Below are positions 5,111 to 64,000 of a stretch of 64,000 nucleotides of DNA, piece after piece. The notes under the pieces are model-generated. The model was not told where the DNA came from. It searched no databases and saw only the letters and a list, made by a program, of their open reading frames with translations. How positions within the stretch are numbered: position 1 is the stretch's first letter; every line of letters begins with the position of its first letter. This DNA comes from Amphiscolops sp. MND2022 (lineage: Eukaryota): assembly GCA_964187785.1 (NCBI GenBank), contig OZ076409.1, forward strand, positions 31,002,001-31,066,000, read 5' to 3'. The translations under genes and the position numbers were made by a program.

Positions 5111-5113
5111 ATT

Positions 5114-16573: not shown

Positions 16574-16602
16574 CTATAGAAATATTAACTGGTACTTTAA
16601 CA

Positions 16603-19173: not shown

Positions 19174-19624
19174 CAAAAAGAACTAACTTAATAAACAAAT
19201 TAACCTCTGAAAAAGTTCAGAATATTATTAATAAAATTCTTCTCAGCTTAACTTTCATTCAAACCCAAATTCTCACCCGGACCAGTTCTTCCTTTTTAAC
19301 TGAAAGAAATTTCACTCTATCACAACTCAGCCCTCATCTTCTATCACAACTCAGCCTTCAACCAGAAGACTTCAATTGGATTTCCACTCCATCTAGAAGA
19401 CCAAAACAACAGAAGTTTCTATTCCGGGAATAGATACCACTGTGATTGTTGATGTTTTCAACCAACCATTGATTCAATATTCCATAGTGTAAGTACAATT
19501 TAAACTTAAATTTTAACAAATTAATGGATAAAAAGGATATAACACTAATTTTGTCTAGTACCAGACCTAGTATCATTAGAAATTATAATTATTTTAGCTC
19601 TACAAAAACACGCAAGTCTAAATA

Positions 19625-20932: not shown

Positions 20933-21455
20933 CTGGTAATTATCGGATAATAACTTTAAGAGATAAGTGTTACCACTCTTAATCCCTTAACAACCTGTCA
21001 AAATTAATTGAGTCTACACGTATATGCATGTTATGCATGATTTAATATATGCTTGATGTTAAAATACACTTTAAATTTAAATAATAACTAAAATTTTCAA
21101 AAGCGACATAAAAAATTTTAACAAAATTTAGAATTTGCTCCTCCTTTTAATGGACCGATTTCAACAAATAAGTACACATATGAAAGATATTTAAATACCC
21201 TTCAAAAGACTTCCAAAATACAGCAACTTAATTCTTAAAATTAAAAAGTTATAACATCATAGATTACAACAAAAAAAATGTCAACTATGAAATTCAATTT
21301 TAAAGAGAAATTTAATGTAAACAAACTAATCTATTTTAGGTGAATATCGCAGAAACTGCTTCTTCAGCATTCCTTCTATCTTCGAACCTTCCATCCAAAG
21401 GGAACTTCATCAGCTATTCTCAAATTTCCAAAAGAATTCTTCATTTCATTTCAAA

Positions 21456-35281: not shown

Positions 35282-36539
35282 CACTATGGTAGCAAAAAGC
35301 GACGTACAGCTGAAAATTAAATCTTATTCAGTTTGTGAAGAACTTTTCAATTTCATTCTCAACCGGAAGTGAAATCAATCACTCTTGAATTAAACATTGT
35401 TGAAAATGGTCAAACCTTTGGATTCATACGTTGTTTGCAAAATCGTTACATTTCGCGAAATGGGTTTATAATACAAAGAAATTAAAGAAAAGTTGGGTCT
35501 TAAATCTCGATCGACAGCTCAAACAGCTTATCAGCGTTTTTTGATAACGAACTCTTATGTGGCGAAAAAACCTCCAGGCTGGCCAGAAAAGCTCAGCAAA
35601 AAAGAGCAAAGACTAATAGTTCGAAGAGTGGAAAAAGACACAAAAACAACATTAGAACGAGTAAAAGTACTGCAAAACTCTTTTTCAACGTCAAAGACAG
35701 TTTCTAAATGTACTATTCGAAGAATCCTGAAGAAGTACAGAATTGTTTCTAGGAAAGCAAAGTAGTAAAAAAGTTCAACTTGAACAAAAAACAAAGACTG
35801 ATCAGAAAACGCTTGTGCTCGAGAATGTTGAAAAAGCCCCTTGGTTTTTATCCAGCGTTCTGAATTTTGGCTGGATGGAAACTAGGCTTCCGGGAAAACG
35901 TCGTATTCTCAGACGAAACCCGTGTGCGCTTGAATAGTGACGGCGTTGTGCGGGTGTTCAGGAAAACGGGTCGTCGCTTTTGCCCCAAAAACACCCAAGG
36001 AATACGCACGGACAAAAGATCTATGGGGGCCATCAGATCAGATGGTCGGAAAATGCTAATTAAATGTCCCGCAACACTTAACAGTTACGGATATTTGGAG
36101 ATTTTAAAGCAATTTGATCGACATTTGAATATACCGGATTTGGTGTTCCAGCAAGACAACGCCCCAGTACACAAAAGTGAAGTTGTTCGCAATTTTCTGG
36201 CCCAAAAGCAAGGGGAGGTGCTGGATTGGCCAGCTTACAGTCCTGACCTGAATCCTATTGAAAATGTTTGGGCCACTTTTTAAAAAAGCTTGCGAGGTCA
36301 GATTGTTACCTGGGAGAATTTAGAAGAAAAGGTTATGGAAGTGTGGAACAACATAAACCCTGATGTTGTTCGCAACTTGTACTCATCGTATAAGAATCGT
36401 CTGGTGAAGGTAATCAAAAACCATGGTAGTTTGACGGGATATTTATTTATTATTTGTTTCAACAGTTGTTTCAAGTTTTACTCTGTTCTGTTTTTTTTTA
36501 AAAAAATGTTGGTGTACGTAGCTTTTTGATACCATAGTG
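35282..36539 (+). mobile_element. Tc1/mariner DNA transposon, 1258 bp
   Basis: 27-bp TIRs CACTATGGTA(G/T)CAAAAAGC(G/T)ACGTACA with 2 mismatches; TA duplication at 35280-81 and 36540-41. Confidence 0.93.
35406..36445 (+). pseudogene. Tc1-family DD34E transposase, disrupted
   Basis: VVFSDETR, FQQDNAPVH and WPAYSPDLNPIENVW (34 residues between the second D and E); HTH-like N-part; stops and frameshifts. Confidence 0.9.
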
Positions 36540-38689: not shown

Positions 38690-38897
38690 TACAGGTAAAC
38701 AAAACTGTTTAATCTAGTTTTAATATTAGTGCTCCTCGAGGATATAAAATTATAAACAATCCGACTACTCTTTTGTACAAAAAGATAACAAAACAAGATA
38801 AGACCAGATCCAATTTTTTCTTGAAGACTCCAACCACAATCCAGTAGATTTCAACAACGAGATACTAACATTCACAATTCAAATCCCCAAGATTTAA
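38690..38897 (+). pseudogene. Minor capsid (penton)-like C-terminal remnant
   Basis: LEDSNHNPVDFNNEILTFTIQIPKI* resembles the terminal strands of Polinton pentons. Confidence 0.45.
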
Positions 38898-38906
38898 TAT
38901 GAATAA

Positions 38907-39315
38907 ATGAGCTTCAATAATTTTAAAAGTAAGTCTTATTGTCTATTGTCTTGGTGGTAAACACTATTCTGCTACAACTAATACTCGTGGAGATATTACT
39001 CAAAATAAGAAAAACTGGCATACCAGTTAAACTCCTACGTGGTGTGTATGTAGCATGTAAAAGAACTAAATCCCTTATAGTATCTGATCAAACTATTGCA
39101 GCCGAGGGATTGGGTGTTTCTTTAAACATATTGGCAAAGCTGCAAAGAATGTTGGAAAGAAAATAATAAACAATCCTCGAAGAGCACTAGAACTCGCAGC
39201 AAACATTGGAACTGCAGCAGTAAAAATCCACGAATGATAGCTGCAACTGCTTCCGATTTTTTAAAATTTGTTCATCAAGGAAAGGGTTTATATTTGGGTA
39301 AATTTTATGGTTAAT
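38907..39315 (+). pseudogene. Small basic virion core-like protein with Zn-ribbon remnant and amphipathic G-x-G-x-F-F-K helix
   Basis: Frameshift-corrected reading ...AAEGLGxFFKHIGKAAKNVGKKIINNPRRALELAANIG...HQGKGLYLGK. Confidence 0.4.
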
Positions 39316-39991
39316 AATTGTATTCAATTCATAAACGTGATGATTCAGAAAATTTAAAAAAGTTGCAAGAAACAAAATCTTCTTTGAAAGCTTAAAGACT
39401 AAAGCAAAATCTCGGGAAGCAAGACGGTCATTACGATATGGAAGAAGTTTTTGAACTCGTTACTGAAAACCAGAAACAAAACCAAGCTAATTAACAAGAA
39501 CTTTCTGAAAAGCAAAAACAAGCGCTACGTGATTCTACTCAAACTACAACACAAGCAATCGAAAATCATGCCAGAGCAATAGAACACAGTAATGATATTT
39601 TAAATAATACTTTACAAAAATCTATTAAAGAAGGAAAACAAGAATATGATTTAACGAGTCGAAGACAGTTTCTAATTTGCTTAATGACAAAAACAAAAGT
39701 CAATTCAGCTTACAACCTGTTGAAGGAACTTCAAACTTATTCCTGATCAACCCCACTAATCCTCAACAAGTACTAATCAAACAGACCTTCATGACCTTCT
39801 TGAGTAACAACCATACATACGATTTAATTGATCCCGATTATTCATAACTTTTAACTAATACACAATTTGATAAAGAAATACAAAACGTGAACGCAATTTA
39901 TAGTTTTTTAAAAGACATGAAATATGATCTAAATTATGGAGATAAAAAACCAAGTAGATTTAATATAAATAAATATTAACTTCAACCCCAA

Positions 39992-40219
39992 TTGGGAATT
40001 GGATTAAATCAGTATGTCTTCCTCCGATCTGATCCAGATGAGCTTGTAGATCAACTAAAACTAATCGTGTTTGAAAAAGTAGGAGGAAATGACAATCCTA
40101 TGCTGAGCGAACAAATCGTAACAATTGCAGATAAACTCCTGGAATATGAATGCATTAGAACATATCAACACCAAAACATTGTTTCAGCTTTTACTAAAAA
40201 GGATCAGTTTGTGGATTAA
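39992..40219 (+). pseudogene. C-terminal part of a conserved Polinton structural-module protein
   Basis: DPDELVDQLKLI...GGNDN...EQIVTIADKL pattern recalled from Polinton proteins; upstream part (from ~39340) is broken. Confidence 0.45.
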
Positions 40220-40256
40220 AGATTTTATTCTCCGGATTAGATTCATTGCTTATTTT

Positions 40257-40800
40257 CTATTTATGCCCGTGTTTGTCTTCTAGCCTGTTTATTAATACAT
40301 AGTTATGTTTATCTTTCCATGCCTCTCTGCATAATTCTTTGAATTCGTCATAAGACATGTCAAAACCAGCAATGTCTGTATAAATGTGTTGTACATCTTT
40401 CAAGGTTTGTTGAAATAAAATTTTGATCTTACTATTATTGCGTATGGTGCGTTTAGGCAATTCGAAATATGATTGTGATAAATAAAAACATCTAAATCAT
40501 TATGTCTTCTCCTAGTAAAAATGGATCTTTTAATTTCTGATTGGAGTCTAACATATCATCAAATACTATACAACAATTTTGAAAATCTTTTTCTGTTCTA
40601 GATTCTAGATCTTCTTCCACTGAAACGTCTTCTAGTTGTATGGTATGTTCTCGTATTGTTCCGAAGATCTAGTTATTATATTTTTTGTTGTTCAGGGTTA
40701 TTCAAGCGAATTAGTTGTAATTTGTTTAATAACAAATAAATCTTACCACAGAATGAAGGACCAACTATTAATGTTCGATTTAATGCATCAGCCTCAGTTT
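40257..40800 (-). pseudogene. A32/FtsK-like DNA packaging ATPase, disrupted
   Basis: Minus strand: Walker A LIVGPSFCGK (~40743-40772), Walker B CCIVFDDMLDS (~40543-40575), RHN...SQSYFELPKRTIRNN. Confidence 0.85.
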
Positions 40801-41199
40801 TATGCGAATCGAATTTATTTACGTGGATGTTGTTTATATGCTTTTATAAATATTTCTTATTGAATTCACGGTCACAAAATTCACACCTCACGTTCTTATT
40901 GAAAGAACTTTTACACCTAATATGTACATCATTATTTTTATATTCATAGAATTCTTCTTGAGATTTAAAAATATTACACTCTTCACTTTTTTTAATATCA
41001 CAATTTAAACTCTTCATTTATTTAGTAAATTTCCTTTGTAAAATGAATCACCAAGACCATTTTTGGTCACTAAGAGTCACTAAGAATCACTAAGGTCACT
41101 AAGAGTCACTAAGACCCAACTCTTAGTGATAAAAATACCTTTCAACCTTTCTAAATTATTAAATTAACCTAAAACAAGAAATCGCTAAAGAAACATTCT

Positions 41200-42023
41200 C
41201 TCATGTAATAAAAAAGTCTGATCGCATCAAACTAATTCCCCATTATAAAGATGAATGTTGGAGTTTTGATCTGATAGATCTGATTCAAACTGGATGATCT
41301 ATCTAGCTTAGCGAAATACAACAAAAACTACAAGTTTATTTCTTGATTGACAATCATACTTAATATGCATGGGCGCTTCCTCTTAAAGATAAATCAGGAA
41401 AAATTTTAACAACTGCATTCACGAAACTCATAGAAACTAGTAAAAGAAAACCGCAAAATGTCTGGTCCGATAGAGGTAAAGAGTTTTTTTAATAAAACAT
41501 TTTTGGAGTTATCTAAACAAAATGAAATACAAATTTATTCAACTCACTCAGATTTGAAAGCTGTTTTTGTGGAACGTTTCAACTCACCATTATTAGATCT
41601 TATCAATGAACCATTGTATATTGAAGGTGAAGCTTGTTGGTTGAATCATATTAATAGTGCTTTGGATATGTATATTAATCGTGTGCATCATGCTATACGT
41701 ATTTCACCTTTTGAAGCTAGTAATGACAAACCAATATCTAGTCTAATACCCAGCAATAATAATAAATTACCTAAGTTCCAAGTTGGAGACTATGCAAGAG
41801 TTCCTGATGAAAGGAACATTTTTTCAAAAGGTTATACAACAAATTGGAATCGAGAATTTTTTAAAATGCATAAATTTAACCTAGTCACATATGGTTCATA
41901 AGACGAAAACAACGAACTAATGGAAGGAAAATTTAATGTACAAGAACTTCTAAGAAGTGTATTCAACTTTGAATCCTACCAAAAGGTGTTAGAAAGTATG
42001 AATGTTTTCCATCAATTTGAGTA
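41200..42023 (+). pseudogene. Polinton retroviral-type (rve) integrase, disrupted
   Basis: CWSFDLID, YAWALPLKDKSG, VWSDRGKEFFN, KAVFVERFN, FQVGDYARV...FSKGYTTNW across frameshifts. Confidence 0.88.
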
Positions 42024-42041
42024 ATTATACCTAAATAAATA

Positions 42042-42653
42042 ATGTCAATACATAAGCTTGGTTATAGTGCCGAGAGCCTACAAAAAGATAACATTGAGAA
42101 TTTAGAAAGAGAATTGGAATCACAAACCAAATTAATCAATTTAAAACTTAATGATATGTCTGATAAATTAGAAAAGTGTAATAGCCTACAAAATGTAGAA
42201 GAAATTAATTTTGACGACAGTGAAACCAAGGTAGTAGTCAATGCAAAGTTATTATTAGACATCAATGAAAATATAGAAGACTTGAAAATCAATGTGAAAT
42301 ACTTAGAACAAGATATAAAAAATAAATTATTAGAAACGAAAGAAGAAATAACTTTGGATGCTGTCAAGTTAGTGGAAGAACAACAAACCATTTTACGTAA
42401 TCACTTTGAGAGAAACTTTATTTCGGATTTGGAAAAATGTAAAAGTGATGCAGTCAAAGATACTATTCAATTACTATATCATAAAGGATTGTTTGACTCA
42501 TTTGAAACTAAAGACCAGTCGTATTTGACCTTTACAAACCATTACTTGCTTGAAAAATGCGGAACAGAAATAAAGACATCAGATGGTGTGTATTATTTAT
42601 CAGACTTGGACTATGCAACGAGAGAAGATATCGTGAAGTGCTTAAAAAAATAA
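42042..42653 (+). CDS. Polinton coiled-coil protein of unknown function, 203 aa
   Basis: Uninterrupted ORF with heptad-like L/E/K pattern. Confidence 0.55.
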   Translation: MSIHKLGYSAESLQKDNIENLERELESQTKLINLKLNDMSDKLEKCNSLQNVEEINFDDSETKVVVNAKLLLDINENIEDLKINVKYLEQDIKNKLLETKEEITLDAVKLVEEQQTILRNHFERNFISDLEKCKSDAVKDTIQLLYHKGLFDSFETKDQSYLTFTNHYLLEKCGTEIKTSDGVYYLSDLDYATREDIVKCLKK

Positions 42654-42734
42654 ATACAAAGATATAGATGACCATAAACATAGAATGGAACTAACCACGA
42701 GTGAAATCAATTTCATACTTTTTGAACTAAATAA

Positions 42735-43260
42735 ATGAGTGAAAAATTATATCCCAGTTTCCAACCACAAGCAGATAGTTTAAAGCAACACCTAAACCTC
42801 CGGTTAAAAAGAATAAATAGTTTTAATAATTCAATTCAAAATATAAAAGATCAAAAATTCTTATAATCATGAAACAAAAAAGAAAAGTAAACAATACAAG
42901 CTCATAAATTGTTTAATACAATCTGTTGATGGTGTTTTAGTACTTGCTGTATCATCAACATGTGTCACTCTCTGCATTACTGGAGTTGGACTTGTTGTTG
43001 TCCCCGTTGCTTGTCGTTTTGGCGCAGCTTTATGTATAATCAATAAGCTTCTTGGTGAGTACCTGAAAAGAGAAGAACTACACAATCTTAAAAAATATAC
43101 ACTTACTAGTAGAACACTACATGATTTCCGTAAACTACATTCAAAATGTTTAGAAGACAATAAAATCGATCTGAATGATTACAACAAACTAAAACAACCT
43201 TATGATACATACAAAACGAATAAAACTAAACTAAATTCTGGGTTTACTTTTTTAGGCTAG
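42735..43260 (+). pseudogene. Polinton small membrane protein, frameshifted
   Basis: Hydrophobic hairpin VDGVLVLAVSSTCVTLCITGVGLVVVPVAC.FGAALCII read on + strand. Confidence 0.45.
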
Positions 43261-43319
43261 CCCTATTTAGTAAAAACAATATAAGTATAAATTTTCAATC
43301 AATATTTTTTTCTATATGA

Positions 43320-44530
43320 ATGGAATTATTTTCTTTGATGAAAAAATATGCTCCCGGTAATCCAATTCATAAAATTGATTTTGTTGAATACTCGCCTAGT
43401 AGTTTAGTTACAATCAACAGCAATAATTCAAATCGTTCCATCATTTTCCCAAGAAAAGATGCCTATATTTGTTTACAAACTCATACATTAGTCTAGAATT
43501 TGAAGTTCTTAAAAACGATAACACACGCTACGTAGACAACGACCAAATAAGCTTGGTCAACTTTGGGACTGTTGCTTCATTTAGTGAAGCTAAACGTGTG
43601 ACACCATGAGGAAAGCATCTAGAGAAAGTTGATAACCTACACCGAGTATGTTTAATGTACAAGCTTTGGACTAGCAACCAACAAACAAGTCAATTGATGT
43701 ACGGATTTGAAGAATCAGAAAACACCAGGCGATTAGATTTAACAAACCACAAAACAGAAAAAGGAACCTTTTTTGTGAGAATAAATTTAAAAGATATGTT
43801 CGGATTTGCTGATCAGGAAAAAATAACCTATGGATTGGGTTATTCTCTGACGTTAAAACGTAATAATAACGACTCTATCATCAGGGATAATGGTGTAGAT
43901 GTGCAAAAGTAGATATAAAAGATATTGCTATGTACCCAGTATGGAAAACCAACAACTTGCCTTTAATCAAATATTAGATAAAGACCCAACCGGGTTGTAT
44001 TATATAGACCAAACTGTCTTTAGAAAAGATGTTAACACCAATAATAATTGGAAGTTTGAATTAGGCAACAGTGGAGAATCGACACCAACATACGTGGTAG
44101 TTGGATTTCAAGCTAGAAATAAAATTGATTCACAAACAAATAACAACTCAACATTCGATCGACTTTCGGTTAGTTATGCAGTTTGTAGAATAGGATCTGA
44201 AAAATATCCCGATGGTGGAATAGATTGTGACTACGATCGCGATAAGTACGATCAAGCTTAATATGAAATCGAAAACTTCGATAACTTACATTCTGAAACG
44301 AATCTACTCAATCCGTTCATCAGTTTGCAAAAATTCCGAACAGAAAATATTTTCTATGTGTTCGATTTATCCAAACAAAAATAGCATCTCAACTTATTAG
44401 ATTAGGATTTAGTGCCACGTTTATTGTAGCAGATGATGTAGCTTATGCCCTTGTACTAACTTCCAAGTTAATAAGTATTAGTAGTGACGGACAAAGACAC
44501 TTTGATATTTTACGTCGAATCATGGAATGA
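43320..44530 (+). pseudogene. Double jelly-roll major capsid protein, disrupted
   Basis: Fragments ISLEFEV, LKDMFGFA..KITYGLGYSLTLKRN, PTYVVVGFQ, IGSEKYP and YVFDLSKQ match the remembered pattern of Polinton/adintovirus MCPs. Confidence 0.7.
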
Positions 44531-44840
44531 AAATAAGAAAAACATACTCATCAATATAAAAACATTAGATAAAAACTCATCTGTAATTAAAAAATTCAAT
44601 TTTTTTTGAAATAAATAATTTATAAGAAATGAAGTACGTAAATAATAAATTTTACACTGAAGTTGATAATCCAAAGTACATTATCAATGATGGAATAATT
44701 TTAAGAGAAACAACCACTCCAAAGTCACTGAAAACAAAATATGAAATTATGAATGGTGTTACACTAGAGAAAAATTCAAATATAATTGAATTAGATGACG
44801 GATCTCTCCAAATTGTTGATTAAAAAAAACGCAAATATAG

Positions 44841-45248
44841 ATGAAGAAATTATTGAGATATGCTACCTTGTGTGGGAGATGTAATAGAAACGCTCTACTA
44901 GAATATCAGTATGAATTCGTTTGTTATGTATGTGAATTTAATGTGAAAAGAAAAAACGAATTATCAAAATTTCAAAGAAAAAAGAGTACCAGTTTCAAAG
45001 GGAGAATAACATATGCAACTCCAAATATTATTGGTATTTGTATGGAAGTTAATTTGTTAACCCAAACGATTACCTTAGACGTCATCGGTACTTTTCTAGC
45101 TTACCTTAATCAGAAGAAATTAAATGTTATAGAAGAAATCCTAAAAATGTTTGATGATTTGCCTGATGATTTTGAAACTAATGCCCTTATACGGAAAGCT
45201 GGAGGAATACATAAAGCTTGCAATTATGCTTTAAGGATGATGAAGTGA
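44841..45248 (+). CDS. Polinton ORF with CxxC...CxxC zinc-binding motif, 135 aa
   Basis: CGRC...CYVC in an open ORF. Confidence 0.4.
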   Translation: MKKLLRYATLCGRCNRNALLEYQYEFVCYVCEFNVKRKNELSKFQRKKSTSFKGRITYATPNIIGICMEVNLLTQTITLDVIGTFLAYLNQKKLNVIEEILKMFDDLPDDFETNALIRKAGGIHKACNYALRMMK

Positions 45249-45594
45249 TTGATTTCATCTAGGTATTATGAGAATGTTAATTATTATGACTTGAGTGCTA
45301 CTGCTTTAACTTTCATGAGAGGTGAAAAGTTGTATATAACAAAGGAACTTTTTACACTAGTAAATGGGTGAAAGTGAGGGTGAAACAATATGTTCAGACA
45401 GTTGGATCTCCGAAGACGAAAGTTTGCATAGCTCAGATAAAGATTTTTTCCATGACTCTGAAACTGAAGATTCAGAATCTGAAACTAAGACTGAAGAGCA
45501 TGTTCCAGAATACAAAAAAAAATTAAAAAAATTAGAGATTAATATTAAAATTTAAAAATAAGAAAAAACAATTCAAGTAATCATTCCCTAATAA

Positions 45595-48500
45595 ATGAAA
45601 GACGCACAAATTGAATTACCGCAATGTGAGGTCTGTGAGAAGGACGTTCACAGATCATCGTCCTTGAAACATTTAAAGTCTAAACTTCATGAAGATAATG
45701 AGAAATTAAATCCCTCAAACTTTTTAAATGAACCCAAACCATCAACTTCAAAAAAATATCAGAAATGTACCAAGATTAAACGATTTAGCGAGAGGAAAAA
45801 TCAATCACTCAAATAGAGAGTTACCAAAAGAGATTACTTAACGTATGATAAATCCATAATACTTCTCTCAAAGATATCAACCTCAATATGAGAAGAATCT
45901 TGATCAACATCACCTCAGTCGTATAAATAGTAAGATAACCATTAAATCAAAACATCATCTTCCTGTTGAATTATTCGATTTATATAATATTTTCAAAGAA
46001 ATGTTAACTATTTTTGCTAGGTTAATAAATCAATACAAATTCAAACATCAAGTTGTATTTTCAGCTAGTTTCGATAAGAAGAATCAAGAATAAAGAATTC
46101 ATTAGTTTAAAAGTCAATCAAAGTTTAACAAGGAGTGATATTGAGGAATATGATTTGGAAAGTGAATTAGGTACACAAATTGAAAATCTTGAAATGAAAG
46201 ATAGTGAATGGAAGTTTTGTAAAATTGTGACGATGACGATCTATCTCTATAAAACTGTTGAATTAAACGGTTGTAGTTATGGTAAAATACCTCTTAGAAG
46301 TTTTGCTATTTTAATTGTTGAAAACACTGACAACTATTGCTTTCTATGAAGCATCTTAGCTCACCTTCATCCTCGTGAGATTTCTGATTCTCACCCAAAT
46401 AGGCTTTCAAACTATCGAGAACATTTTTTTGAATTGAAATTAGATGGATTTGATTTTACTAAAGGATTCAAAACTCCAGATGTTTCTAGATTTGAAATGA
46501 TGAATAACTTAGCTATCAATATGTGAGTTACAGTTTCATCAAGAAGGGATAAACTGGAAACAGAAACTAATCCCTGTTGAGGTTAGTAACAGTAATTTGG
46601 AAACGATGATTGATTTAAAGATATATGAAAATCACTATGCCCTCAATAAGAAACTTCATGCATTCTTAGGAAGGAGAGATTCAAATTTCGTTTGTCGTCG
46701 CTGTCTAACTTGCTTTACAATTGAAAACGTTTTTGTGAAACATATTGAAGGACGTGAGCAACAGGATATTACAGCTATCAGACTTAGGAAGGATAGTCGT
46801 TTAATGTGGAAGAAGCACTTTCATTAGATCCAACTATATTTCAGGATCTATTTTGATTTCGAATGTAATAATAAAATAGAAGATTCTCACGTAGGTAATA
46901 AAACTACAAATATTTTAGGGCAAAATCCAATGTGTATTTGATTTTACATAATATCTGAGTTGAATGAAGTTCCAGAGTCTGGATATCATAGTTGTTTTGA
47001 TGAAAATAATGAGTGGTGTGTTGAGGAAGTTATAAAAATAGAAAATAAGACGAATTTTCACCTCAATAAAACAAAGAAAGTCATTGTAATGACTCGAGAA
47101 GATGAGGATGATTTCAAGAATAGTACTCTCTGTTGGTTCTGTGAAATTTCACTAGATGGGAGAGGTGTCAGAGATCCTTGTCATCTAACTGGTAAGTATC
47201 GAGAAACCGCACATGAGAAATGTAATAAGAATGTGAAACAGAAACAGTAATTTTATACCTTTTATGTTTAACCACTTCAGTATTTTTGATTGTCACTTGT
47301 TCTTTCAAACATTGATTGATAAAAAACCAAATACTGTTCCTCTGCATGTTATACCTAAGACGAATGAGGAATACATTTCAATTTCTTTTTCCCATATGAT
47401 GAAATAAAATTTGTTGGTAATGTTAACTTAGAAGATATTTAAACACTTCAGATAAAAGTGAAGTTGGTTATTTCCTCGAAGTTGATTTGAAATATCCTAA
47501 TGGGATAAAACAAGACTAAGAACTTTCCTTGCTGTCCAGAAAAAAGGTTTTCACCTCAAGATAATTTTTTTGAATATTTGAAAAACAATGAAACCCAATA
47601 CGTATACCAAACGTAAAAAATAAATGTGATTGGACAGATAAGAAAAAGTATCTGGTTCATTATCGAATGTTGAAGTTTTATGTGATACATGGAATGATTG
47701 TTGAAAAAGTTCATCAAGTAATTTCTTTTAGGCAGAGTAAATGGTTAGAAAAATATATAAATTTTATTACCCAGAAACGAAATGAAACAAAGAACGACTT
47801 CGAAAAAGATTTTACAAACTATTAAATAATGCGTTGTTTGGAAAGACAATGGAGAATGTACGAAATAGAAGTAAGATTGAGTTCATTAGAAAGGATGAAG
47901 AAGAGAAGATGGTCAAGTGCCAATTCAAGTTAACGTTTAGTGGATTTCATAAGTCTCATGTAAAATACGACAGTTTCACATTTAAACAGAATGAGGTGCT
48001 TATGGATAAGCCAAAATGTCTCGGATTTTCTGTATTGGAATTGAGCAAGTTATTGATGTATGAATTGTACTATGATAAATTTTAACCTTGTTTTGGGGGA
48101 GAAAACTTACATTCCCATTATATGGATGGTGTGACAGGAGATACCCCGAATATTTTGAAAGAAAATGGAAATTTAAAAAATTTTAAGGGTTGATGAGAAT
48201 GTTAATGATGAAAATTGGTATAAAGATGATAATGTTATTACTGATTGGGGTGATAAAGAATTTGGTGATTGCGGAAATTTTCAGGTATGGACAACTGAAG
48301 GATGGAAAGACCTTAAAAAGGTTGTAAAGCATAAGACAGAAAAAGATATCTATAGAATTAGAACAAAACATGGTATCGTTGATGTGACTGAAGATCATAG
48401 TTCACTCACTAAGAGTAAAGAAGTAGTCAGACCTCGCGATTTGATTCTAGAAGAAATACTACATAATCATATTTAATTTGGAGAGCCGTGTGTGACGTTT

Positions 48501-49632
48501 GATGAAATCATTGATAAAATATATAACACAGAAGCTACGACTTTAAAGGAAAAAGATATGTTTGTTGAAGGCTTCTTTTTAGGCGATGGAACTTCTGGAG
48601 TTTACAACTATAGTTCCGGTGTATTGTTGGACATTGAATAATTTGTACTTTGGTAAAATTGAAAAGAGAAAACGATATGCTGTTGAAGTTTGGAGAGAGT
48701 ATTTTAAAATTTATGATAGCAGTGAATCGAGTCATGTCTATAGAATTTCTTCAGGTAAGAAGATGGCTTTAGAATTTGATGAATGTTATACGAATGAGAA
48801 GGAAAAAAGAATTCCACACTACATCTTGAATCAAACACTTGAGAATGGAAAATGGTTCCTAATTGGATTTTACGCAGCTGATGGTTATAGAAAAATTAAA
48901 TATAAATATTTATCAATTTCTCAAAAGAATAAAACTACTATATCTGGTTTAAATTATCTTTGTCAGTCTTTAGGACTAAATACTTGTATGTAGGACAAAT
49001 ACAATTTGTATGCGCGATGATACACTCAATGTTTTCAAACTAATTACTGTTCATAAGATGAGTGATGAAAAAGTTCATAAAATATTGAATTTAGGTAAGA
49101 AGAATGATTTTGTGTATGATTTAGAAACAGAATCTCATGATTCCAAGTGTGGTTTTCCTTTAATCGTACACAATACTGATAGCTTCGTTGTTATTGTGAA
49201 TACTGATGGTATTGTTAAAGATTTAGACAATCTGAGAGATTTCTTTGATTTCAGCAATTTAAGCAGAGAACACAACACAAGCTATTTAGTGAAGTAAATA
49301 AAAAGGTACTTGGTAAATTTGAAATTGAAACTCCTGAGAGGATATGGATTGATGAATTTATATGTTTAAGAAGTAAAGCATATTCCTTTGAATGTAGGGG
49401 TAAAAATAAAAACAAACTAAAAGGTATCTCAAAATTTCAAACAAAAAATATTAAATTTGAAGAGTACTACAACTGCTTGTTTGGAGGTGATTATAAAAAA
49501 GAATGTGAAAATTTTATAATCAAATCTATAAATCATAATATGTTTCTCCAAAAGGTGACTAAAATTTCTTTATCTGCTTTTGATGAGAAACGTTGTTGTT
49601 TGCATAATATTGCGAGTAGTCCGTGGACGTGA
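45595..49632 (+). pseudogene. Protein-primed family B DNA polymerase (pPolB), disrupted, containing an intein
   Basis: N-terminal C2H2 (CEVC...H...H), NYCFL...NHY, exo I YFDFEC, CWFC...CHLTGKYR..AHEKCN, YFLEVDLKYP, motif B KLLNNALFGKTMENVR, motif C YMD/TDSF, LRSKAYS, KLKGI. The region carrying motif A appears deleted near 47390. Confidence 0.92.
48128..49174 (+). other. Intein with LAGLIDADG homing endonuclease (degenerate), 1047 nt
   Basis: Splits HYMD|TDSF. Block A GVTGDTPNIL, block B GIVDVTEDHS (TEDH 48387-98), LAGLIDADG-like VEGFFLGDG and FLIGFYAADG, block F VYDLET, block G IVHN followed by Thr+1. Confidence 0.92.
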
Positions 49633-51065
49633 TAATTATTTTTGAACATTAGAATAATATTTAAAATGCTCATAATCATAAACATTCTCTTTTTGGACAG
49701 CTAAATCATGCTCATGATTTCTTGAGCCTTTCTTTTTATTATCGTGCTTTAAAAGGGAGTGGATGTTGGAGAAGTGAGCTGCTTCTTTCAATTGTTCTGG
49801 ATCAGTTAGATCGAATGATGATCGAGGTCGATGTTCCTCCAAGTCATGTCTCCCGTCATTAAAAATTCGATGTAATTTTCAAATTCTTCAAATGACATTC
49901 TTAGTGTTTGTTCAGTTTTGAAATTTTTGTGAGTTGTTAGAGTAGAGCATTGTATTATCTTGAACGTAGAATCCATGATAGTCTAAAAGATTCGTTTTTG
50001 GCTCTTTTCTTTTTTTGTAATTCCTGTAATAACTATTACGTTTCTCGCGATTATTTTTTCATCCGTTGGGTGGTTTTTAAATATTTACATCTTTTACAAT
50101 ATTGATTTAGTTTATCATTTGATCTTGAGTCCTTGTTTTCTTTTTATACATTTATTTGTAAACGGTTTTCAAATAGAAATAAATAATTTATCTTTCCAAT
50201 AGAAGAATTAGTGTTCCACTTCCGCAACCAGGTTCAATTTCCACATCTTTTTGATAAAACCCTATTTAATTCACCCTCGTCAATTTTTAAATTTTCCTCT
50301 TCCTCTCTCCACTCATAATCTTCAAACATCCCTTTATTCCTAATATTTCCATAAAGTTTTCTCATTTTTGTAAAAAAACAATAGAATATCTTTTTCCAGT
50401 TTTAGAATATATTCATTTATTGAGACATCCAAACTAAAGCTTTCAAATGAAATCTGTTCAAGAATATATACAGAAATATCATCTATTTTCTTAATGATAT
50501 CTTCTAACCTAACTATATTTCTTTTTCTATCATATCTTGTCCTAATTCAATCCCAAATAAGAGTAAATTTTACATCATTCAGAATTTTCAACTTTTCCTC
50601 TATAGATTTATGGTGGAAAATAAGTTCATGAAACTTTTCTGAGGTTGTTTGTTCAAGTTCATTCTGTATATTATTCATTTATTAGGAAACATTTGTTTCA
50701 CTTTTTACGAAATGAATTCAACGAACTATTGATAATTCACTTTTATTTGCAATATAACTAATTTTAGTAGAGTATAAACGCAAAGAATAAAGAAGATGAT
50801 TAGAATTAATGCTACCACTACTAAAATTTGTAGTGGAAGTTGTTTGTTCATTTCAAAGATTTCCATTTATTATAAGAATAGTAGAAGAATTTCAACGTTA
50901 TTCTAAAACATGGTTAGTAGAGTATTGCAGAAGTAATGTATAAAGTCGTATTTGACGTCAGCGCGAGGTCGCCATGAGCGAAGCCAATGGCGAAGTAAGG
51001 GGGCGAACGACGTGAGCAAGCTTGCGTCCTTGCGTCTGGCGTCAAATACGACTTTATACACTACT

Positions 51066-53039: not shown

Positions 53040-54920
53040 TAATTGTTCTGTTTTCATCACCTTCTTTTGGATCCAAGATACTTTGGTGTAATTCAAATTC
53101 TTCCTCAACAACCAAATTACATTTTTCACTTGAGTGAGATGGGAAACATGAGAAATCGAAGGTCCAGAAGACTTGAGACTCCGTCTCCAGACAGAGAAGT
53201 AGAAGTAACTCAAGTTTAAACGCCTAATACAGGTAATGCAACTTTAACTAATCTTAATAATGAAGTCCAAGAAAAATTAGCTGAGAACAGCTCAGAAAAT
53301 CATCTGACCGAATCCACCCAAATTAGTAACGAAATCCAAACTTGGATCCAATTACTGGAACAGAAAAATAGTGATAGGATAGAAAAAATGAGAAAAGAAA
53401 TAGACAATAAACTTGAAGTATTCCTAAAAGAGATCAAGTCTAGCAAAAGTATATCGACGGTAACAAATTCCAGGTCAGATGTAAACGAAATACAAGATAT
53501 ACAACCTTCGGGGTCCAAGACGAATATGCCTATGGGAGTTCACGCATCTAATAACGAGGATTTAGATTCTAAAAATGACGATTTTCCTTTCAGAGCTTCA
53601 AAAATGAAAGATTTGAAACATCCTGCTAAACCATTATATCGAAATGAAGCAGACGTAGATGTAACAATTCTTTCAGACGAAGAATCCGACTAAGAGGATT
53701 ATCACACGCTCTGTACTGCAAGTGAATTGATGTGCGCCGTATATAGTAGAAACGGTCGAATACAGCAAATGTGCAACCCCTACCTTTCTGGTTTATGTTG
53801 TGTTGGCATGCATAGTGACGGAAGTCTGGAAAAAGTTGTATGCGAATTTCCAAAAGTATTTTGCGAAGTACTGAGCGTTTTGCAACGACATCATCATCGT
53901 CAATTATCTAACGGTGCGTAACAAAGTAATTGTATAGTCATGTTTCATTCAATTCAGGAGCTCTAGCAGTTTCCGGGTAGTAGTTTTGTTTTCATCACCT
54001 TTTGGATCCAAGATACTTTGGTGTAATTCAAAGTCTTCCCCAACAACCAAAATACATTTTTCACTTGAGTGAGATGGGAAACATGCGAAATCGAAGGTCC
54101 AGAAGACTTGAGACTCTGTCTCCAGACAGAGAAGTAGAAGTAACTGAAGTTTAAACGCCTAATACAGGTAATGCAACTTCAACTAATCTTAATAATGAAG
54201 TCCAAGAAAATTTAGCTGAGAACAGCTCAGAAAATCATCTGACCGAATCCACCCAAATTAGTAACGAAATCGAAACTTGGACCCAATTAATGGAACAGAA
54301 AAATAGTGATAGGATAGAAAAAATGAGAGAAGAAATAGACAATAAACTTGAAGTATTCCTAAAAGAGATCAAGTCTAGCAAAAGTATATCGACGGTAACA
54401 AATTCCAGGTCAGATGTAAACGAAATACAAGATATACAACCTTCGGGGTCCAAGACAAATATGCCTATGGGAGTTCACGCATCTAATAACGAGGATTTAG
54501 ATTCTAAAAATGACGATTTTCCTTTCAGAGCTTCCAAAATGAAAGATTTGAAACATCCTGCTAAACCATTATATCGAAATGAAGCAGACGTAGATGTAAC
54601 AATTCTTTCAAACGAAGAATCACACGAAGAGGATTATCACACGCTCTGTACTGCAAGTGAATTGATGTGCGCCGTATATAGTAGAAACGGTCGAATACAG
54701 CAAATGTGCAACCCCTACCTTTCTGGTTTATGTTGTGTTGGCATGCATAGTGACGGAAGTCTGGAAAAAGTTGTATGCGAATTTCCAAAAATATTTTGCG
54801 AAGTACTGAGCGTTTTGCAACGACATCATCATCGTCAATTATCTAACGGTGCGTAACAAAGTAATTGTATAGTCATGTTTCATTCAATTCAGGAGCTCTA
54901 GCAGTTTCCGGGTAGTAGTT
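53040..54920 (+). repeat. Direct tandem duplication, 935-bp period, of a decayed coding-like (possibly gag N-terminal) segment
   Basis: ORF pairs 53300/54235 and 53626/54561 are offset by 935 with near-identical translations. Confidence 0.9.
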
Positions 54921-58372: not shown

Positions 58373-61300
58373 TCACAAGCGCTGCAGAACATTAAAAAAA
58401 ATTGAGTCATGGTCTGAATAATATACAGGGTGCAAGTATGCTTCGGTTTTGAAATGTCGAGTGAAACAGAGATCGAGTCTGTTTCTTCCCCGGTGGGTAT
58501 CGGAAGTTATAACTTGGTGGAAATGGTATTGCGACATCAAGGGAAGAATGTTTCCAGCATTTGGCAAATTGAAATCGCCCAGAACAATTGCGACGTCGTC
58601 AGTTAGTGCTCCTTCTAGTTGTGCAAAGAATTGCCAATGATGTCTTCGCGAACTTCGATAAACATGTATCAGTGCACAATTGTGGTTCACAATTTCTATC
58701 CTTTGAAATTCCTGAAAATTAATTACGTTCGCCACAATGGTGGAGTCAGCGTAAGAACTCATGCTAGGTCCCTTACCCTTTTTGATATGAGACAGCCCAA
58801 CCAACTTTGGCAGAAGAGAAGGAATATTGGAATTTTCCTCGAGCCATGTTTCACAAAGATGAAGCAAATTGGCTTTCTGCAAAACTTTGTCAGCAAGTAA
58901 ATCCACAATTTTATTCTGCATACACTGAATGTTCACAAAAGATACAATGAACAAAGAAGGATCTTTGACAGGGGAACGTTTCAGCAAAAAGGCATGATAT
59001 CTATTTTCTAACTGTTCAACCATTAGTTTAGCTGAAAAATCGCATCGAATCTGTCGCTGATCGAAAGCTCGCTGAATACTTATATCGTCTATTGTCTTCG
59101 AACGGCTAAGCATGACATACACCATCCCAGAAGGTAGGCCTTTGCTCCAATGAGTTACGATTTTAGAAGACGATGTGAACGTTTGGCCTTGAACTTTATG
59201 GCAAGTTACTCCCCATGCCAATCGTAGGGGTAACTGGACCAGAGTTGCCCGCGCAAGGTGCTTTGTTGATGTACCAAGGTTGTAGCTGAACGATTCGCGG
59301 AAATACGGCACGGATCCTGGAAAGAGTGATGACAAATACAAATGTTTCAGACATTGGTTTTTCCCAACATTTTCGTCGTCAAAGTGTATCAAAGCACAAT
59401 GGACTTGCCCTTTGCTAGTGAAACTAAAACCTGATACAGTTCCCAGTTGGCCGTTTGTAAGGGAGTCGGTAACATCGACATTGTGTATCAGCATAACTCT
59501 CGCGTTAACTTTCAAATGCAGAATATCTTGAAAGGCCGTGTCATCTATCCTACCAGACTGATTTACTTTTGATGAGCATCCTGAACAAAAAATTTGAAAA
59601 CAAGACCACAGATGTAATAACGCAAAACAAACAATATGTACATTACCTGGAGTTGAAGATTTCATGGCCTTGACTGAGGTTGTTTGACCTTGTGTTTTCA
59701 TGAGCATTTTCGAATTGTGGGTGCTGACATCTTTATTTGTGTAGTAAATATGTGTTTCTTCAACTGTCGCAGGACGATTCGTGATTCGTGTCATTAAGAG
59801 AGCAGCATCTGAACTAGTAACATTGCTGATGCGAATACGTCGAAGGACAGCGGGCCAAGCATCATCATTGTTCTGCCTAAAATGGTCATCTAAGATATGG
59901 ATTTTGTTAACGTTGGAGCTTAAACCAATAGAATACCATCTAACAGTTTTACAAAAAAATATTATCCAAATTTTTCATAGTATCAACGCCGAGCAATGTT
60001 AGTAAACTGACCTGTTGAGTTAATTGAGAACAACAACGTCGAACTGCTGCCAACGGTTGTTGATTTCGAAGAAACCGGCATATTTTTCAATACTGGGTTT
60101 CTCGAATATGAATTTGACCTGAACAGGCTTCAGCTGTAAAAGATCACCAAACAGCAGAATAGCAACGTTACCAAATAATTCATCGTTTCGTTTGATCTGC
60201 TGGAGTCTCTCATGGACTTGATAAAGAAGGTCAGATCTCACCATGCTCATTTCATCGACAACCAGAAGGCGTAAATCTTCAAGTAAACTTCGCTGTTGAT
60301 CCAAAGCAGCATCACTGAGTCCAGCCAGTTGATTGCCAAAACTGAGGTTAAATGCAGAGTGAATTGTAGTGCCATTGGTCAACGATGCAGCCATTCCAGT
60401 TGGTGCAACTGCCAAAGCGCATGGCTTGTTCAGACAACTCCCGGCCTGAGTGAATTCACACAAAGCGTTATTCATGATGCATTTTATCAAGCGCGACCTT
60501 CCAGTGCCGGCTTCACCTTGGACAATGAGGCGTGGGGTTTGGAAGTTGTTTCCTCGAGTGCAATCGTGGACAAATCGAGCGTTGTAGTCAAAAACCATCC
60601 GCTGTCGATGATCTAAACTTCTGATTGCACAATGAATTTCTTCTCTTGATTTCAATTTCAACTTCGGAAATGTGAGTTTCGGTGAACATTCATTTGACTT
60701 ATCGAAAGTACCTGGATGCCGCTCAGTGAAAGTAATTTCAGTTGGAGAAATTTCGTCGTCTAAATTTTCTTGAGCTCCTTGAGGATCCAAAACATCTGCC
60801 ATATGTTGTGCTCGTATGTTTGCTGTGTCTAGGTCGAGGCTCTGTTTTAGGAGTTGATCATCTACAAGGTTGGAGAATACATTACGTTTGTTCTCGAGTA
60901 TAATCTCGGTGTAGCTCGATTGTTTCATCTCGCCAAGGATAGTACAAAAGACATTCACTATAATAGAACTCGTGTTCTTCTGTTTTTCTATATGAATCGT
61001 GGATTCTGATCACACATCGAACTTTTCGACGTTTCATCTGTCCAAAGTTGTCTTTCAAATATATCACTTTTTCTTTGTGACGGGTGGTGTCTTTCCAGAT
61101 GGGTTGGTAACAAATGGCAAACTCCGCTAAGCAAAAGTCGTTGAGATAGTCAGGACGCTTACTGTATCGTTCATGAATCGATTTGGTGAAGATGTAACGT
61201 CCTTGATGACCCGAAACAGCCACGATGTTTTCATTTTCCACGTTGACATTTACGTTTTCGATATACTTTAAAAGCTTGCATCGGTTCTCAGGAAAGCCGG

Positions 61301-63940
61301 TGGCAACGAAAATTGATGTTATTTTAGAGTCTTTCATATGAAGTTGAGGAAGTAGTCGGTACGTTGCTTCGCATGAACTTACTTGACGATGACTCAAATA
61401 AACAGCTTTCATTTGCTTCAAAAGATCTTCTCGCCCGCGAGATTCATCGCGAGCTTTGATAGTCGCTTTCAGAAGGTCTGTCATGCCGGTTTCGCCTTTT
61501 GAATAATAATCACAAATGTATGTTACCACAGCGTATGTATCGCAACAGAACTGGAGATCGAGGTTAGCGTCCCAAGCTTCTAGCCAATCGGGATTATAGT
61601 TATTGACGAACAGTTCATTAAAATTTCGTTTTAGATTGATTGTTCGTCCATGCTTTGAAAACGAAAGCGCGCGGTGGTAATCGTCAGAAGTAACGTTGAG
61701 CTTTTCGAAAAAACTATGAAAATCTTTCGGAATGTCGTCACCCAACAATATTTGCTTCGCCTTATTGAGGATTTCAGAGGATCTTCGGAGTTCTTCATCG
61801 GACACGTTAACAGAAGGTTTAGCAATAAGTGTTTTCTGAGAAGGAAAACGTGGGAAACGAAATCGACAGAAGCCTTTTTTATTCAGGCAAGATTTTGTGT
61901 GGTGATGAACTGGAAGCTCCAGAACTTATCGTCTGAGGGTAAGATCGTCCAATGGTAGCGCACCCGTGATAAAAGGGTAGTTTGCAATCATCGAGAGTTT
62001 CGTTTTCCATGAAAGTACGAATGAAACTTTCCTCAAGCCAAATGCAGCCATGTATGTGGGCCATACCACGAAGTTGCCATTTCCACGCGATAAGTGAAGT
62101 ACATCACAGGAATAGCTCCGTCATATTCTGCTAGCACGATTGTCCTAATGAAACACTGAACTCTTTTGTTGAAGACGCGAGTAACTTGGACCACATGTTT
62201 GCGAAGAATCTCTGATCTTGAAATATGCTTCCGAGCAATAAATTCTTCGAATGGAATTCCATCAATAAAAACGCTATTCACAACTCCATCATCACAGAAT
62301 TGCCGCTGGAAAGAAATCTGATGACCCAACGACTTTAGAATGCTAATGGACACTTCCGGCCAACGGGATTCAGCGCAAGAAAGAGTGAAAAACATGAAAA
62401 GGACCCAACTGTTTAATTTTTGCCAACATTTCCGATCGCGCAACTCTCCAGTATTGACTGGTACCTCGAAGACGTTGAAACACTGACTGAACGTCAGTTT
62501 GATTTACGCCATATAACCCATCACCTTGCACTCCAACTATCCCTTTCCTCAAAAAAAGGTCGCAACTTTTCTCTAGTTGTTCTCTCTCAACTCTTTGCTG
62601 TGCTGCAAACAAATACGTTCCAATTTATTTCGGACAGACATTGCAGGCATTTTACCATTCTTTAACGACTTCGAGCATGCCCAGCACACGTGAAGAGTCT
62701 TCTCTGGATTGCTGCTATACAATTTCTGTTCAGGCAACAAAATATCATCATCGTAATTCTTCCATTCCCGCACACATTCCTCGAAAAGCACCCTTTCATA
62801 ACTAGAACAAACGAAAATCAATCCTGGAATCATTTGACTTCGAAAACAAAGTTGAGAGGCAAATGTTGGCATCAATTGCTCGAATTCACGAAGTATTGAT
62901 TGCTCCTTTTCAAAAGTGTTTCCATTCTGGAGGACATGGGATTTTATAGCTTTTAATTGTTTGACCTGAATGCCACGTTTCGGCATATTACGGTACTTTT
63001 CAGCGAGCTGACTTCTCAAAGTTGTTTTGTACTTTTCTTTCAATTGCACTCTCAGATAAGCTCGATAATTCTCCTTCAGCTGTGATTCCAATACTTCAGT
63101 GTGTTTCTGTTTCAATCGCATTCGAAGATGATCTTTGTAACGACGTCTCAGCTTGAAGGCCAACTGTGACTTGTATTTCATCTGTAGAACTTCTTTCAGC
63201 TGCAGTTTGTATTTCATTTGCATCTGCTCTTTCAACTGGAATTTGTATTTCTTTTGCATCCATTCTCTCAATTCCAGCTGGTATTTCAACTTCATACGTT
63301 CTTTCAGTTGCATTTTGTATTTCAACTTCATACGTTCTTTCAGGTGCATTTTGTACTTCAACTTCAAACGGTCTTGCATCTGCATTCTGTATTTCAATTG
63401 TAAAGGTTCTTTAATCGAAGTTTGATATAATTGTTTTCTTTTTTCTCTCGTTTTTCTGTAGTAGGTCTGATTTTTTTTCAAAACTGGTTCCTTTCCATTA
63501 ATTTTCCTTTCCACTTGAGATTGACTTCGTATCCAGTTATTAAACGCGCTGTAGTATACTTTACAGGTGCTTCGAGAAAAATGTGCTTTCGCGTTTTTCT
63601 GATCCGTGAAAATTGAACCGCAGGAAACACACGGTTTGCTGAGGGATTCTTCGAAACTTTCGGCAAAATTGAGGGACTCACTATTAGGCGTTGTGATGCA
63701 GCGAGTGGCATCTACCTTTCCACATTTCGTTCGTTTCCTGTGTCTAGCGAGATGTGACTCAATGAAAAAAACTTTGCGACAAGACGGGCAAATCCATGAA
63801 GATTGAGTGCTGTGAGGATTGAGAGAACTCGCAGAACATGACCAATTTTGATCGTCCGAGTGAGCTTGCGAGAGACCAAATGATTCAGGACCGTTTATCA
63901 AGTACATTGAAGGGGAGGCCATGGGGGAGACAAGCATCAT
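58373..63940 (-). pseudogene. Helitron RepHel-EN transposase (Zn fingers, HUH Rep, PIF1 helicase, AP endonuclease), frameshifted
   Basis: Two C2H2-like fingers; FFTLSCAE.RWPE; AHIHGCIW (HUH); YICDYYSK; GEAGTGRS, APTGMAA, VVDEMSMV, FGDLLQLKPV, AWGVTCHKVQGQT, YVMLSR; EEP motifs LCETWL, LGDFN, RLDLCF, YSDH. Confidence 0.93.
63130..63420 (-). repeat. 36-bp coding tandem repeat (12-aa unit LKERMKLKYKMQ) in the Helitron N-terminus
   Basis: About eight degenerate 12-aa repeats in the 455-aa ORF. Confidence 0.85.
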
Positions 63941-64000
63941 GCATGATAGATCGATAGAAGTTACTCGATGAGCAGTCGTTGTGGAACTGTTGACTTTCGT

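Follow-up and report, generated by a model that had tools for sequence, protein, structure and literature searches.

We analysed a stretch of 64,000 nucleotides (nt) from the genome of Amphiscolops sp. MND2022 (assembly GCA_964187785.1, contig OZ076409.1, positions 31,002,001 to 31,066,000), here called the window, which is located at 31 Mb of a 104-Mb contig in an assembly of 1.07 Gb. The subject of this report is a decayed intein at 48128..49174 on the forward strand, inserted in the catalytic motif of the protein-primed DNA polymerase B (pPolB) of a Polinton/Maverick element. The element copy in the window belongs to what we term family A, spans 38715..49632 on the forward strand, is truncated at its 5' end and aligns at 80-85% identity with a sister element. 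This alignment covers positions 3096-15005 of a 20-kb stretch that holds the 16.3-kb sister element, and the left 4 kb are therefore absent from the window copy.

The remnant of a gene with zinc-finger and P-loop ATPase-like features (40190..41017, reverse strand) aligns with the sister open reading frame (ORF) L038:4601-5293, also on the reverse strand. An rve integrase remnant (41168..42019, forward) aligns with L038:5642-6493, and the remnant of a double-jelly-roll (DJR) major capsid protein gene (43320..44550, forward) with L038:7803-9032. Taken on its own, the window ORF in the integrase remnant (41434-41901) has no Pfam match. The N-extein of the polymerase (45595..48127, forward), recognised from the sister pPolB alignment and from ORF pieces, is broken, has a 625-nt deletion near 47385 and ends with HSHYMD. 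The C-extein remnant (49175..49632, forward), recognised from the sequence, ORF pieces and the sister alignment, begins at the Thr+1 of TDSF. A possible remnant of the right terminal inverted repeat (TIR) is found at 50932..51006 (forward), with 79% identity over 81 nt to the sister terminal repeat. Approximately 1.3 kb (49633-50931) separates the pPolB stop from this putative TIR and has no sister counterpart, the gap in the sister being about 100 nt.

As for the type of element, the sister has inverted matches at its two termini, 50 nt (92%) and 81 nt (85%) long, possibly with a 4-nt target-site duplication. It encodes an rve integrase (PF00665, 1.3e-12) and a DJR capsid protein (DJR-like_dom, PF21738, 4.8e-20), and the polymerase of the sister copies matches PF03175 at 9.5e-15 and 6e-14. 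The ATPase candidate matches zf-C2HC_2 (2e-5), with a weak AAA_14 match (E 0.0018). By its pPolB, rve integrase, DJR capsid, TIRs and size within the 15-20 kb range, the host element is classed as a Polinton/Maverick (polintovirus, adintovirus-like). Each terminal repeat of the sister also holds an inverted repeat of its own, 37-39 nt long with arms about 60-106 nt apart (L039:5114-5297; L124:8957-9090), possibly forming a hairpin at the element ends.

The insert has the layout of a Hint splicing domain with a LAGLIDADG homing endonuclease inserted in it, judging from Pfam matches on its pieces and from the sister alignment. The N-junction reads ...HSHYMD|GVTGDTPNILKENG... (48113-48170) and the C-junction ...GFPLIVHN|TDSFVVIVNT... 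(49151-49204). Between them lie 1047 nt, or 349 codons, and the net frame is maintained; the window sequence thus agrees with the earlier note on this DNA, which had described a motif C split as HYMD|G...HN|TDSF by a frame-keeping insert. The maintained frame is a coincidence of indels, since three of them shift it (+1, -5 and +16 nt relative to an open sister). DVTEDHS, EGFFLGDG, IGFYAADG and VYDLET are all found in the insert, spread across three frames.

The conserved blocks, all on the forward strand, begin with block A (GVTGDTPNI, 48128..48154), where codon 1 is GGT, encoding Gly in the place of the Ser found in the sisters. Block B follows as T-x-x-H (TEDH, 48387..48398), with T87 and H90 invariant in 33 aligned inteins. 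In the same alignment, D155 and G156 of the first LAGLIDADG motif (GFFLGDGT, 48570..48593) are invariant, and D256 and G257 of the second (IGFYAADG, 48862..48885) are kept in 90% of rows or more. The insert closes with blocks F and G (VYDLET...IVHN, 49112..49174), which have a His-Asn end and in which D330 and N348 are invariant.

On pieces of the window insert, the LAGLIDADG_3 (2.9e-5) and Hom_end (1.9e-4) matches are above the Pfam cut-off, while Intein_splicing (PF14890), which has a cut-off of 35.8 bits, is weak at 14.1 and 12.6 bits. Over 1030 columns of alignment with the open sister, the insert shows 85.7% identity. In addition to the frameshifting indels, it carries three 3-nt deletions, one in-register stop and the change of Ser1 to Gly, with the remaining key residues kept. 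The decay claimed in the earlier note is evident from these lesions and marks the window copy, which shares about 83% identity with modern copies, as an old insertion that is now dead.

Sister copies and the nature of the insert

The genome was searched at the DNA level, and 40 of 551 first-look candidates were scored; the counts given here are lower bounds. Counting the window, at least 31 loci hold the insert with both flanks, and two or three further partial old copies exist besides. The 31 copies are spread over 12 contigs, 10 of these 59-104 Mb long. A 29-nt pattern of the N-junction was found at 30 genomic sites (28 of them exact) and at 0 sites in controls; the window copy has diverged too far for a match. 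Modern copies share 98-100% identity in the N-extein and 95-99.8% in the intein, and the old ones (the window, L036 and L037) stand at 79-84%.

Codon 1 of the intein encodes Ser in all 30 sisters (AGC in 29, AGT in one), so the Gly1 of the window is secondary, as the earlier note had supposed. The intein frame, of 346-348 codons, is open in 24 of the 31 copies, with Ser1, T-x-x-H, both LAGLIDADG Asp residues, His-Asn and Thr+1 in place. Among these 24, block B is TEDH except for one TENH, and HN, TDS, GFFLGDG and GFYAADG are present throughout. Furthermore, in 20 of the 31 copies the frame is open across the whole fetched polymerase stretch, and the full-length precursor has 1537-1539 amino acids. 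The search for intact copies with Ser or Cys at position 1, and for sister Polintons with and without the insert, had been suggested in the earlier note and returned both kinds, 31 with and 12 without. That note had the window intein right and missed the 24 open sister inteins, the 12 intein-free alleles with their altered site and a distant family of 321 sites described below.

In an open sister, Pfam reports DNA_pol_B_2 (PF03175, 9.5e-15) together with Intein_splicing at 38.9 bits (cut-off 35.8), and Hom_end (1e-6) and LAGLIDADG_3 (5.4e-6), both over the cut-off. An AlphaFold2 model of the open-copy intein, built with 33 aligned relatives, has a score of 93.8 in the predicted local distance difference test (pLDDT) and a predicted template modelling score (pTM) of 0.92. 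The best Foldseek matches of this model in the PDB are intein homing endonucleases, namely 2cw7 (1.3e-16), TliVMA, PhoVMA, PI-PfuI and PI-SceI, with E-values from 1e-16 to 1e-9; the free LAGLIDADG enzyme I-DmoI ranks next, after these. On its domains and modelled fold, the insert is a class-1 intein, with a Hint domain carrying a two-motif LAGLIDADG homing endonuclease. This supports the earlier proposal that a Polinton pPolB carries such an intein at its YxD|TDS (pol-c) site.

In terms of selection, two intein sub-lineages were compared through the ratio of nonsynonymous to synonymous change (dN/dS). It is 0.09-0.18 for the intein (0.06-0.20 for the Hint part, 0.14-0.22 for the endonuclease part) and 0.10-0.32, the same as the intein, for the exteins. 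The five pairs behind these figures all span one split and therefore count as a single comparison, in which changes are few (13 nonsynonymous, 23 synonymous). The ratios indicate purifying selection on intein and exteins, and the intact copies are apparently functional as inteins. The synonymous divergence (dS) between the sub-lineages (copies L002-L035) is 0.025 in the 2-kb N-extein versus 0.12-0.14 in the intein and C-extein. This fivefold difference points to recombination, with a breakpoint near the N-junction.

The insert in the window is not a product of chance. Intein-free copies join the flanks into a contiguous motif C, as the earlier note had expected of a true intein, and the insert belongs to a large family of inteins.

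Relatives in other polymerases

A protein search with the 348-residue intein gave 346 matches, of which the best 120 were read. Both junctions could be read in 115 of these 120 (three truncated proteins, P0064 and P0117 were dropped), and in 114 of the 115 the intein sits at xD|S...N|TD[SC] of a family B DNA polymerase (PolB). The exception, P0120, is a type II topoisomerase of 1595 amino acids with the same intein family at DQD|S...HN|TDG, a further, non-allelic host.

The nearest relatives lie in pPolB exteins. P0002 and its 136-member cluster have an intein identity of 96%; P0003-P0006, P0017 and P0020 have 61-71%, with extein identities of 49-76%; and P0007 and P0012-P0015 have 42-47%, with extein identities of 36-49%, P0012 standing for a cluster of 121 members. 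Most other relatives, at about 30-43% intein identity, are found in RNA-primed PolB (rPolB) exteins (PF00136/PF03104). The rPolB class follows precomputed Pfam labels, and P0016 was counted as pPolB by its precomputed PF03175 label only.

The PolB intein of Acanthamoeba mimivirus aligns with the whole query (100%) at 37% identity and E 1.8e-53, which confirms the kinship to inteins of nucleocytoplasmic large DNA viruses (NCLDV) that had been suspected in the earlier note. In the text of Ogata et al. 2005 (PMC549080), this mimivirus intein at YGD|TDS is described as the pol-c allele, and pol-c inteins are stated to occur in archaea too. By its YxD|TDS junction and its homology with the mimivirus intein, the Polinton intein is likewise assigned to the pol-c allele.

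A quick tree with 116 rows separates the 11 pPolB inteins from all others by a single branch (Shimodaira-Hasegawa-like approximate likelihood ratio test, 100). They adjoin 21 rPolB inteins (support 92, not starred) and, if the tree is rooted at its midpoint, fall inside the diversity of rPolB inteins. The pPolB split recurs at 100/100 and in all 200 bootstrap trees when a careful tree is built from 69 rows, omitting 46 rPolB rows as well as the topoisomerase. By sequence and phylogeny, this pattern shows a single intein transfer between the RNA-primed and protein-primed PolB families, and we infer that a giant virus would have been the source of the Polinton intein. The earlier note had gone further and proposed a transfer from an NCLDV to a Polinton during co-infection; one crossing between families stands, while the donor, the direction and the co-infection exceed what a tree without a root can carry.

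A scan of IMG/VR gave 528 relatives. The best 80 of these matched over the intein only, at 33-41% identity, and GVMAG is part of the name in 25 of these 80. A metagenome scan with P0007 gave no relative, and in a second metagenome scan only L133 is of the pPolB type. Two candidates with an apparent extension into the extein, L195 and L197, were rejected as pPolB-type relatives, being RNA-primed PolBs with several inteins. Another relative, P0013, is a pPolB and intein fragment on a 2.5-kb contig, recorded in NCBI as a protein from the metagenome-assembled genome (MAG) of a bacterial symbiont in a lucinid clam. Host or viral DNA was probably mis-binned here, and the fragment hints that bivalve-associated Polintons also carry the intein.

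Intein-free alleles and the history of the intein

Twelve loci of family A lack the insert and have their flanks joined exactly, and 8 of the 12 are open across the fetched stretch. Their junction residues are YGD|TDA in ten (one of them with YVD), YFD|TDA in one and YTD|CDS in one. When compared to intein-bearing copies, they are 89-98% identical in the N-extein and 83-95% in the C-extein.

The differences between the two kinds of copies accumulate at the insertion site. Most bins of the exteins show 0-6 differences per 100 nt, apart from an unrelated spike of 14-15 at 800-900, and the bin with the insertion site shows 15-29, followed by 10-13 in the next bins. Within 20 nt of the site there are 4-8 differences on one side and 7-10 on the other. 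Near the site the two kinds differ by 35-50%, versus about 2-3% elsewhere, and 8 of the 20 residues round the catalytic motif are changed in the intein-free copies. We rejected the idea that these copies are simple precise deletions, as the flanks differ at 15-18 of 40 nt round the site.

The context YMD|TDSFVLS is common to the intein-bearing copies, to related intein-bearing polymerases of other assemblies and to a distant intein-free family, which suggests that YGD|TDA is the derived context. No intein-free copy with family A's own YMD|TDS context was found among the 26 nearest pattern matches, two of which were viewed as loci; all 26 of these closest sites read K/N-x-H/Q-L-H-Y-M-D, the context of the distant family. 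This second pPolB family is much larger, with 321 sites of contiguous H-Y-M-D-T-D-S-F and 0 in controls. Eight sampled loci (L125-L132) have about 65% identity or less, are mostly decayed and lack the intein; two sites of the family match 24 nt of the intein family's flanks exactly. The 321 sites were considered as empty sites of family A and rejected, the eight sampled being of the distant family, with about 65% identity or none.

In a tree of exteins with 36 rows, from which L036 was omitted, the presence or absence of the intein needs two changes, and old intein-bearing copies are deepest under midpoint rooting. The site-centred divergence fits a homing cycle with endonuclease-resistant alleles, as read from these alignments.

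The following history can be proposed. In intact copies the polymerase would be made as the precursor of 1537-1539 amino acids. Judging from the conserved residues, Ser1 would attack the preceding peptide bond, Thr+1 would accept the N-extein and Asn348 would cyclise, with release of the intein restoring YMDTDS. The freed endonuclease could then cut intein-free polymerase alleles at the site, and repair would copy the intein in, which is homing. On a longer scale, the pol-c intein would have crossed once between the RNA-primed PolBs of NCLDV and the PolBs of Polintons, been inherited with the Polinton lineage and entered the germline by integration. The family would persist as intein-bearing copies beside intein-free, putatively resistant alleles with a heavily altered site.

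We give a probability of roughly 85% to this history, in which an intein of the pol-c family, able to splice and to home, crossed once between polymerase families and was integrated in an animal germline by way of a Polinton. A more specific version, in which the homing cycle, acting on copies scattered over the chromosomes, is active in the animal germline, or recently was, the intein-free survivors rewrote eight residues round the catalytic motif and so escaped cleavage, and the intein came from a giant virus at a common replication site in co-infection, is put forward tentatively, and we lean against it as a whole. If it were true, the intein would be a physical trace of contact between Polintons and giant viruses in an animal host lineage.

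Several observations count against the proposed history. Pfam found no protease family at E <= 0.5 in the 8 unassigned ORFs of the sister element, and the ATPase signal is weak. The window copy, with Gly1 and a broken frame, cannot splice itself, a phmmer search of the intein against PDB sequences gave 0 matches, and the dN/dS values sample a single split. The oldest intein-free copy (83-89% identical to modern copies) is nearly as old as the oldest intein-bearing ones. Since one intein-free copy is also old, long coexistence is the safe reading, and either state may have come first in family A. The local divergence at the site could stem from recombination with a third lineage, in the absence of any endonuclease pressure. 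Finally, the intein tree is unrooted and archaeal pol-c inteins are not in its alignment, and a transfer from Polintons to NCLDV is compatible with it.

Among the alternatives, the one that fares best keeps the splicing and drops the homing. Here the endonuclease would no longer home, the intein would spread by transposition of the Polinton, and the divergent empty sites would come from recombination with another Polinton lineage. The raised divergence does extend about 300 nt downstream of the site, like a recombination tract, the fivefold dS of intein and C-extein relative to the N-extein (0.12-0.14 versus 0.025) shows mosaic elements, and transposition of 99%-identical copies can account for all the growth in copy number. 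An endonuclease released from homing sits poorly, however, with the retention of both LAGLIDADG Asp residues by all 24 open copies and across a set of 33 distant relatives, or with a dN/dS of 0.14-0.22 in the endonuclease part. The divergence peak is centred on the insertion site, and a YGD|TDA donor lineage was not found outside family A, all 10 sites of the pattern being family A. We regard this explanation as possible and rather doubtful.

The direction of transfer could also be reversed, with the intein arising in, or first colonising, Polinton-like pPolBs and later moving to the PolBs of giant viruses. The lack of a root allows this, and within pPolBs the intein and extein identities are alike (47% versus 44-46%; 42% versus 36-41%), which suggests an old association. 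However, midpoint rooting places the pPolB clade inside rPolB diversity, beside the 21 rPolB inteins. Hosts of the rPolB type outnumber pPolB hosts 104 to 10 (matches with both junctions read, best 120 of 346), the best 80 of 528 IMG/VR relatives match over the intein only, at 33-41%, and pol-c inteins have been described in archaea too (Ogata et al. 2005, PMC549080, as far as its text goes). We consider such a reversal improbable.

From the window copy alone, with its weak Intein_splicing matches, it could be argued that the insert is no intein but a LAGLIDADG gene, free-standing or carried by an intron, or else the dead relic of a Hint domain, in non-functional polymerases mobilised in trans. 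This is highly unlikely, given that a stop-free frame connects the N-extein, the insert and the C-extein in 24 copies and requires no start signal, that an open copy passes the Pfam intein cut-off and its fold matches solved inteins, that all splice residues are kept, and that intein and exteins are under purifying selection.

Turning to the host, Wnt (PF00110) matches of up to 3e-45 are present on contigs C3, C4, C10 and C40 and in 0 of 14 control genomes. Both C3 and C4, which are chromosome-scale, hold Wnt genes and intein-bearing copies. The smallest contig carries COX1, in which 11 TGA codons are read as Trp and AGR as Ser. Its nearest named relatives are the acoels Symsagittifera roscoffensis (79%) and Baltalimania ylvae (77%), with other records reaching 91%. 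From these markers the host is an acoel-like animal, in support of the animal genome assumed in the earlier note.

Some acoels host algal symbionts. Together with the filing of P0013 under a bacterial symbiont MAG, which indicates that such sequences get misassigned, this would leave room for contamination or misassembly, with the sequence coming from a protist, an alga or a free virus; the 31 copies on 12 contigs, 10 of 59-104 Mb, the Wnt genes on copy-bearing C3 and C4, and the old decayed copies embedded among other transposons make that extremely improbable.

Known systems and other elements in the window

The closest known system is the PolB intein of mimivirus and other NCLDV. It belongs to the same family, interrupts YxD|TDS at the same D|T point, and shares Ser1, Thr+1 and the two-motif LAGLIDADG endonuclease. 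In contrast, it sits in an RNA-primed PolB (PF00136), whereas the gene here is a Polinton protein-primed PolB (PF03175), integrated and in multiple copies in an animal genome. The penultimate residue is often Lys or Ser in the NCLDV relatives, and His here.

The archaeal polymerase inteins 2cw7 ('intein homing endonuclease II') and PI-PfuI (1dq3) have the same combination of Hint and LAGLIDADG (Foldseek E 1.3e-16 and 2.5e-14), but give no phmmer sequence match and are longer, with 537 and 454 amino acids versus 346-348. We take 2cw7 to be a pol-c intein of a Thermococcus polymerase. As for eukaryotic nuclear genes, the fungal inteins (VMA1 PI-SceI, Prp8) also combine Hint with LAGLIDADG and follow a homing cycle of gain, decay and loss, and PI-SceI is a structural match of the family A model. 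Unlike the present case, a multi-copy endogenous virus of an animal, they reside in single-copy fungal cellular genes.

Jeong et al. 2023 (PMC10748475) reported modules of the homing-endonuclease type inside animal Polinton polymerases, where pPolB2 contains inserted endonuclease domains of the HNH and VSR kinds. As described in the text of that paper, where the word 'intein' is absent, they are fixed protein parts with no Hint domain, unlike the family A intein, which is complete with splice junctions and polymorphic for presence and absence in one family. The statement closest to the present finding is a sentence in Krupovic et al. 2024 (PMC11161782), which refers to Jeong et al. 2023 and takes endonuclease domains in Polinton pPolBs to suggest 'intein invasions', and inteins are regarded as absent from metazoan genomes in the main text of the review by Green et al. 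2018. In line with the novelty claimed in the earlier note, full-text literature searching found no description of a Hint intein in a Polinton polymerase, although cases could be held in the supplementary intein tables that accompany Green et al., in figures of Jeong et al. or in subscription papers. An intein in the Polinton polymerase of an animal genome thus seems undescribed.

In terms of significance, an animal genome would hold two dozen apparently functional inteins, brought by an endogenous virus. One intein family at the same catalytic motif of two polymerase families, too distant for ordinary homing, makes a case for non-allelic jumps, and provides a molecular link between giant viruses and Polintons. 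The intein-bearing and apparently resistant alleles of a multi-copy element offer a natural experiment on the homing cycle. As possible tools, the intein and its endonuclease, a rare cutter, may prove usable in animal nuclei.

A separate observation concerns an HNH/Endonuclease_7-like motif in the window polymerase (46942-47250, E 0.041). A zinc motif of this kind is also seen at residues 131-168 of P0001, upstream of the exonuclease domain (E 6e-4, under the cut-off), and the Endonuclease_7-like family is precomputed for the relatives P0015 and P0017. It may be the counterpart of the HNH domain that has been described for pPolB2 of nematodes and oomycetes.

The window contains further repeats and mobile elements. 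A near-identical pair of ORFs (53220-53693 and 54155-54856, forward), about 935 nt apart and with matching antisense ORFs, is a tandem repeat duplication with no Pfam match. A Tc1/mariner-type DDE_3 transposase fragment is found at 35864-36283 (forward, 6.6e-19). At 58373-64000 (reverse), a Helitron/Helentron-like element has a PIF1 helicase (7.6e-18) beside an Exo_endo_phos endonuclease domain. Lastly, a very large Ty3/gypsy-like element at 7016-21000 (forward) has an open gag-pol frame of 2654 amino acids (reverse transcriptase, RNase H and integrase) in a region of strong strand skew, with a GC skew of about -0.3. The gag-pol frame is followed by an ORF of 870 amino acids (16561-19173) that matches the Monjiviricetes (rhabdovirus-type) fusion glycoprotein family at 3.6e-25.

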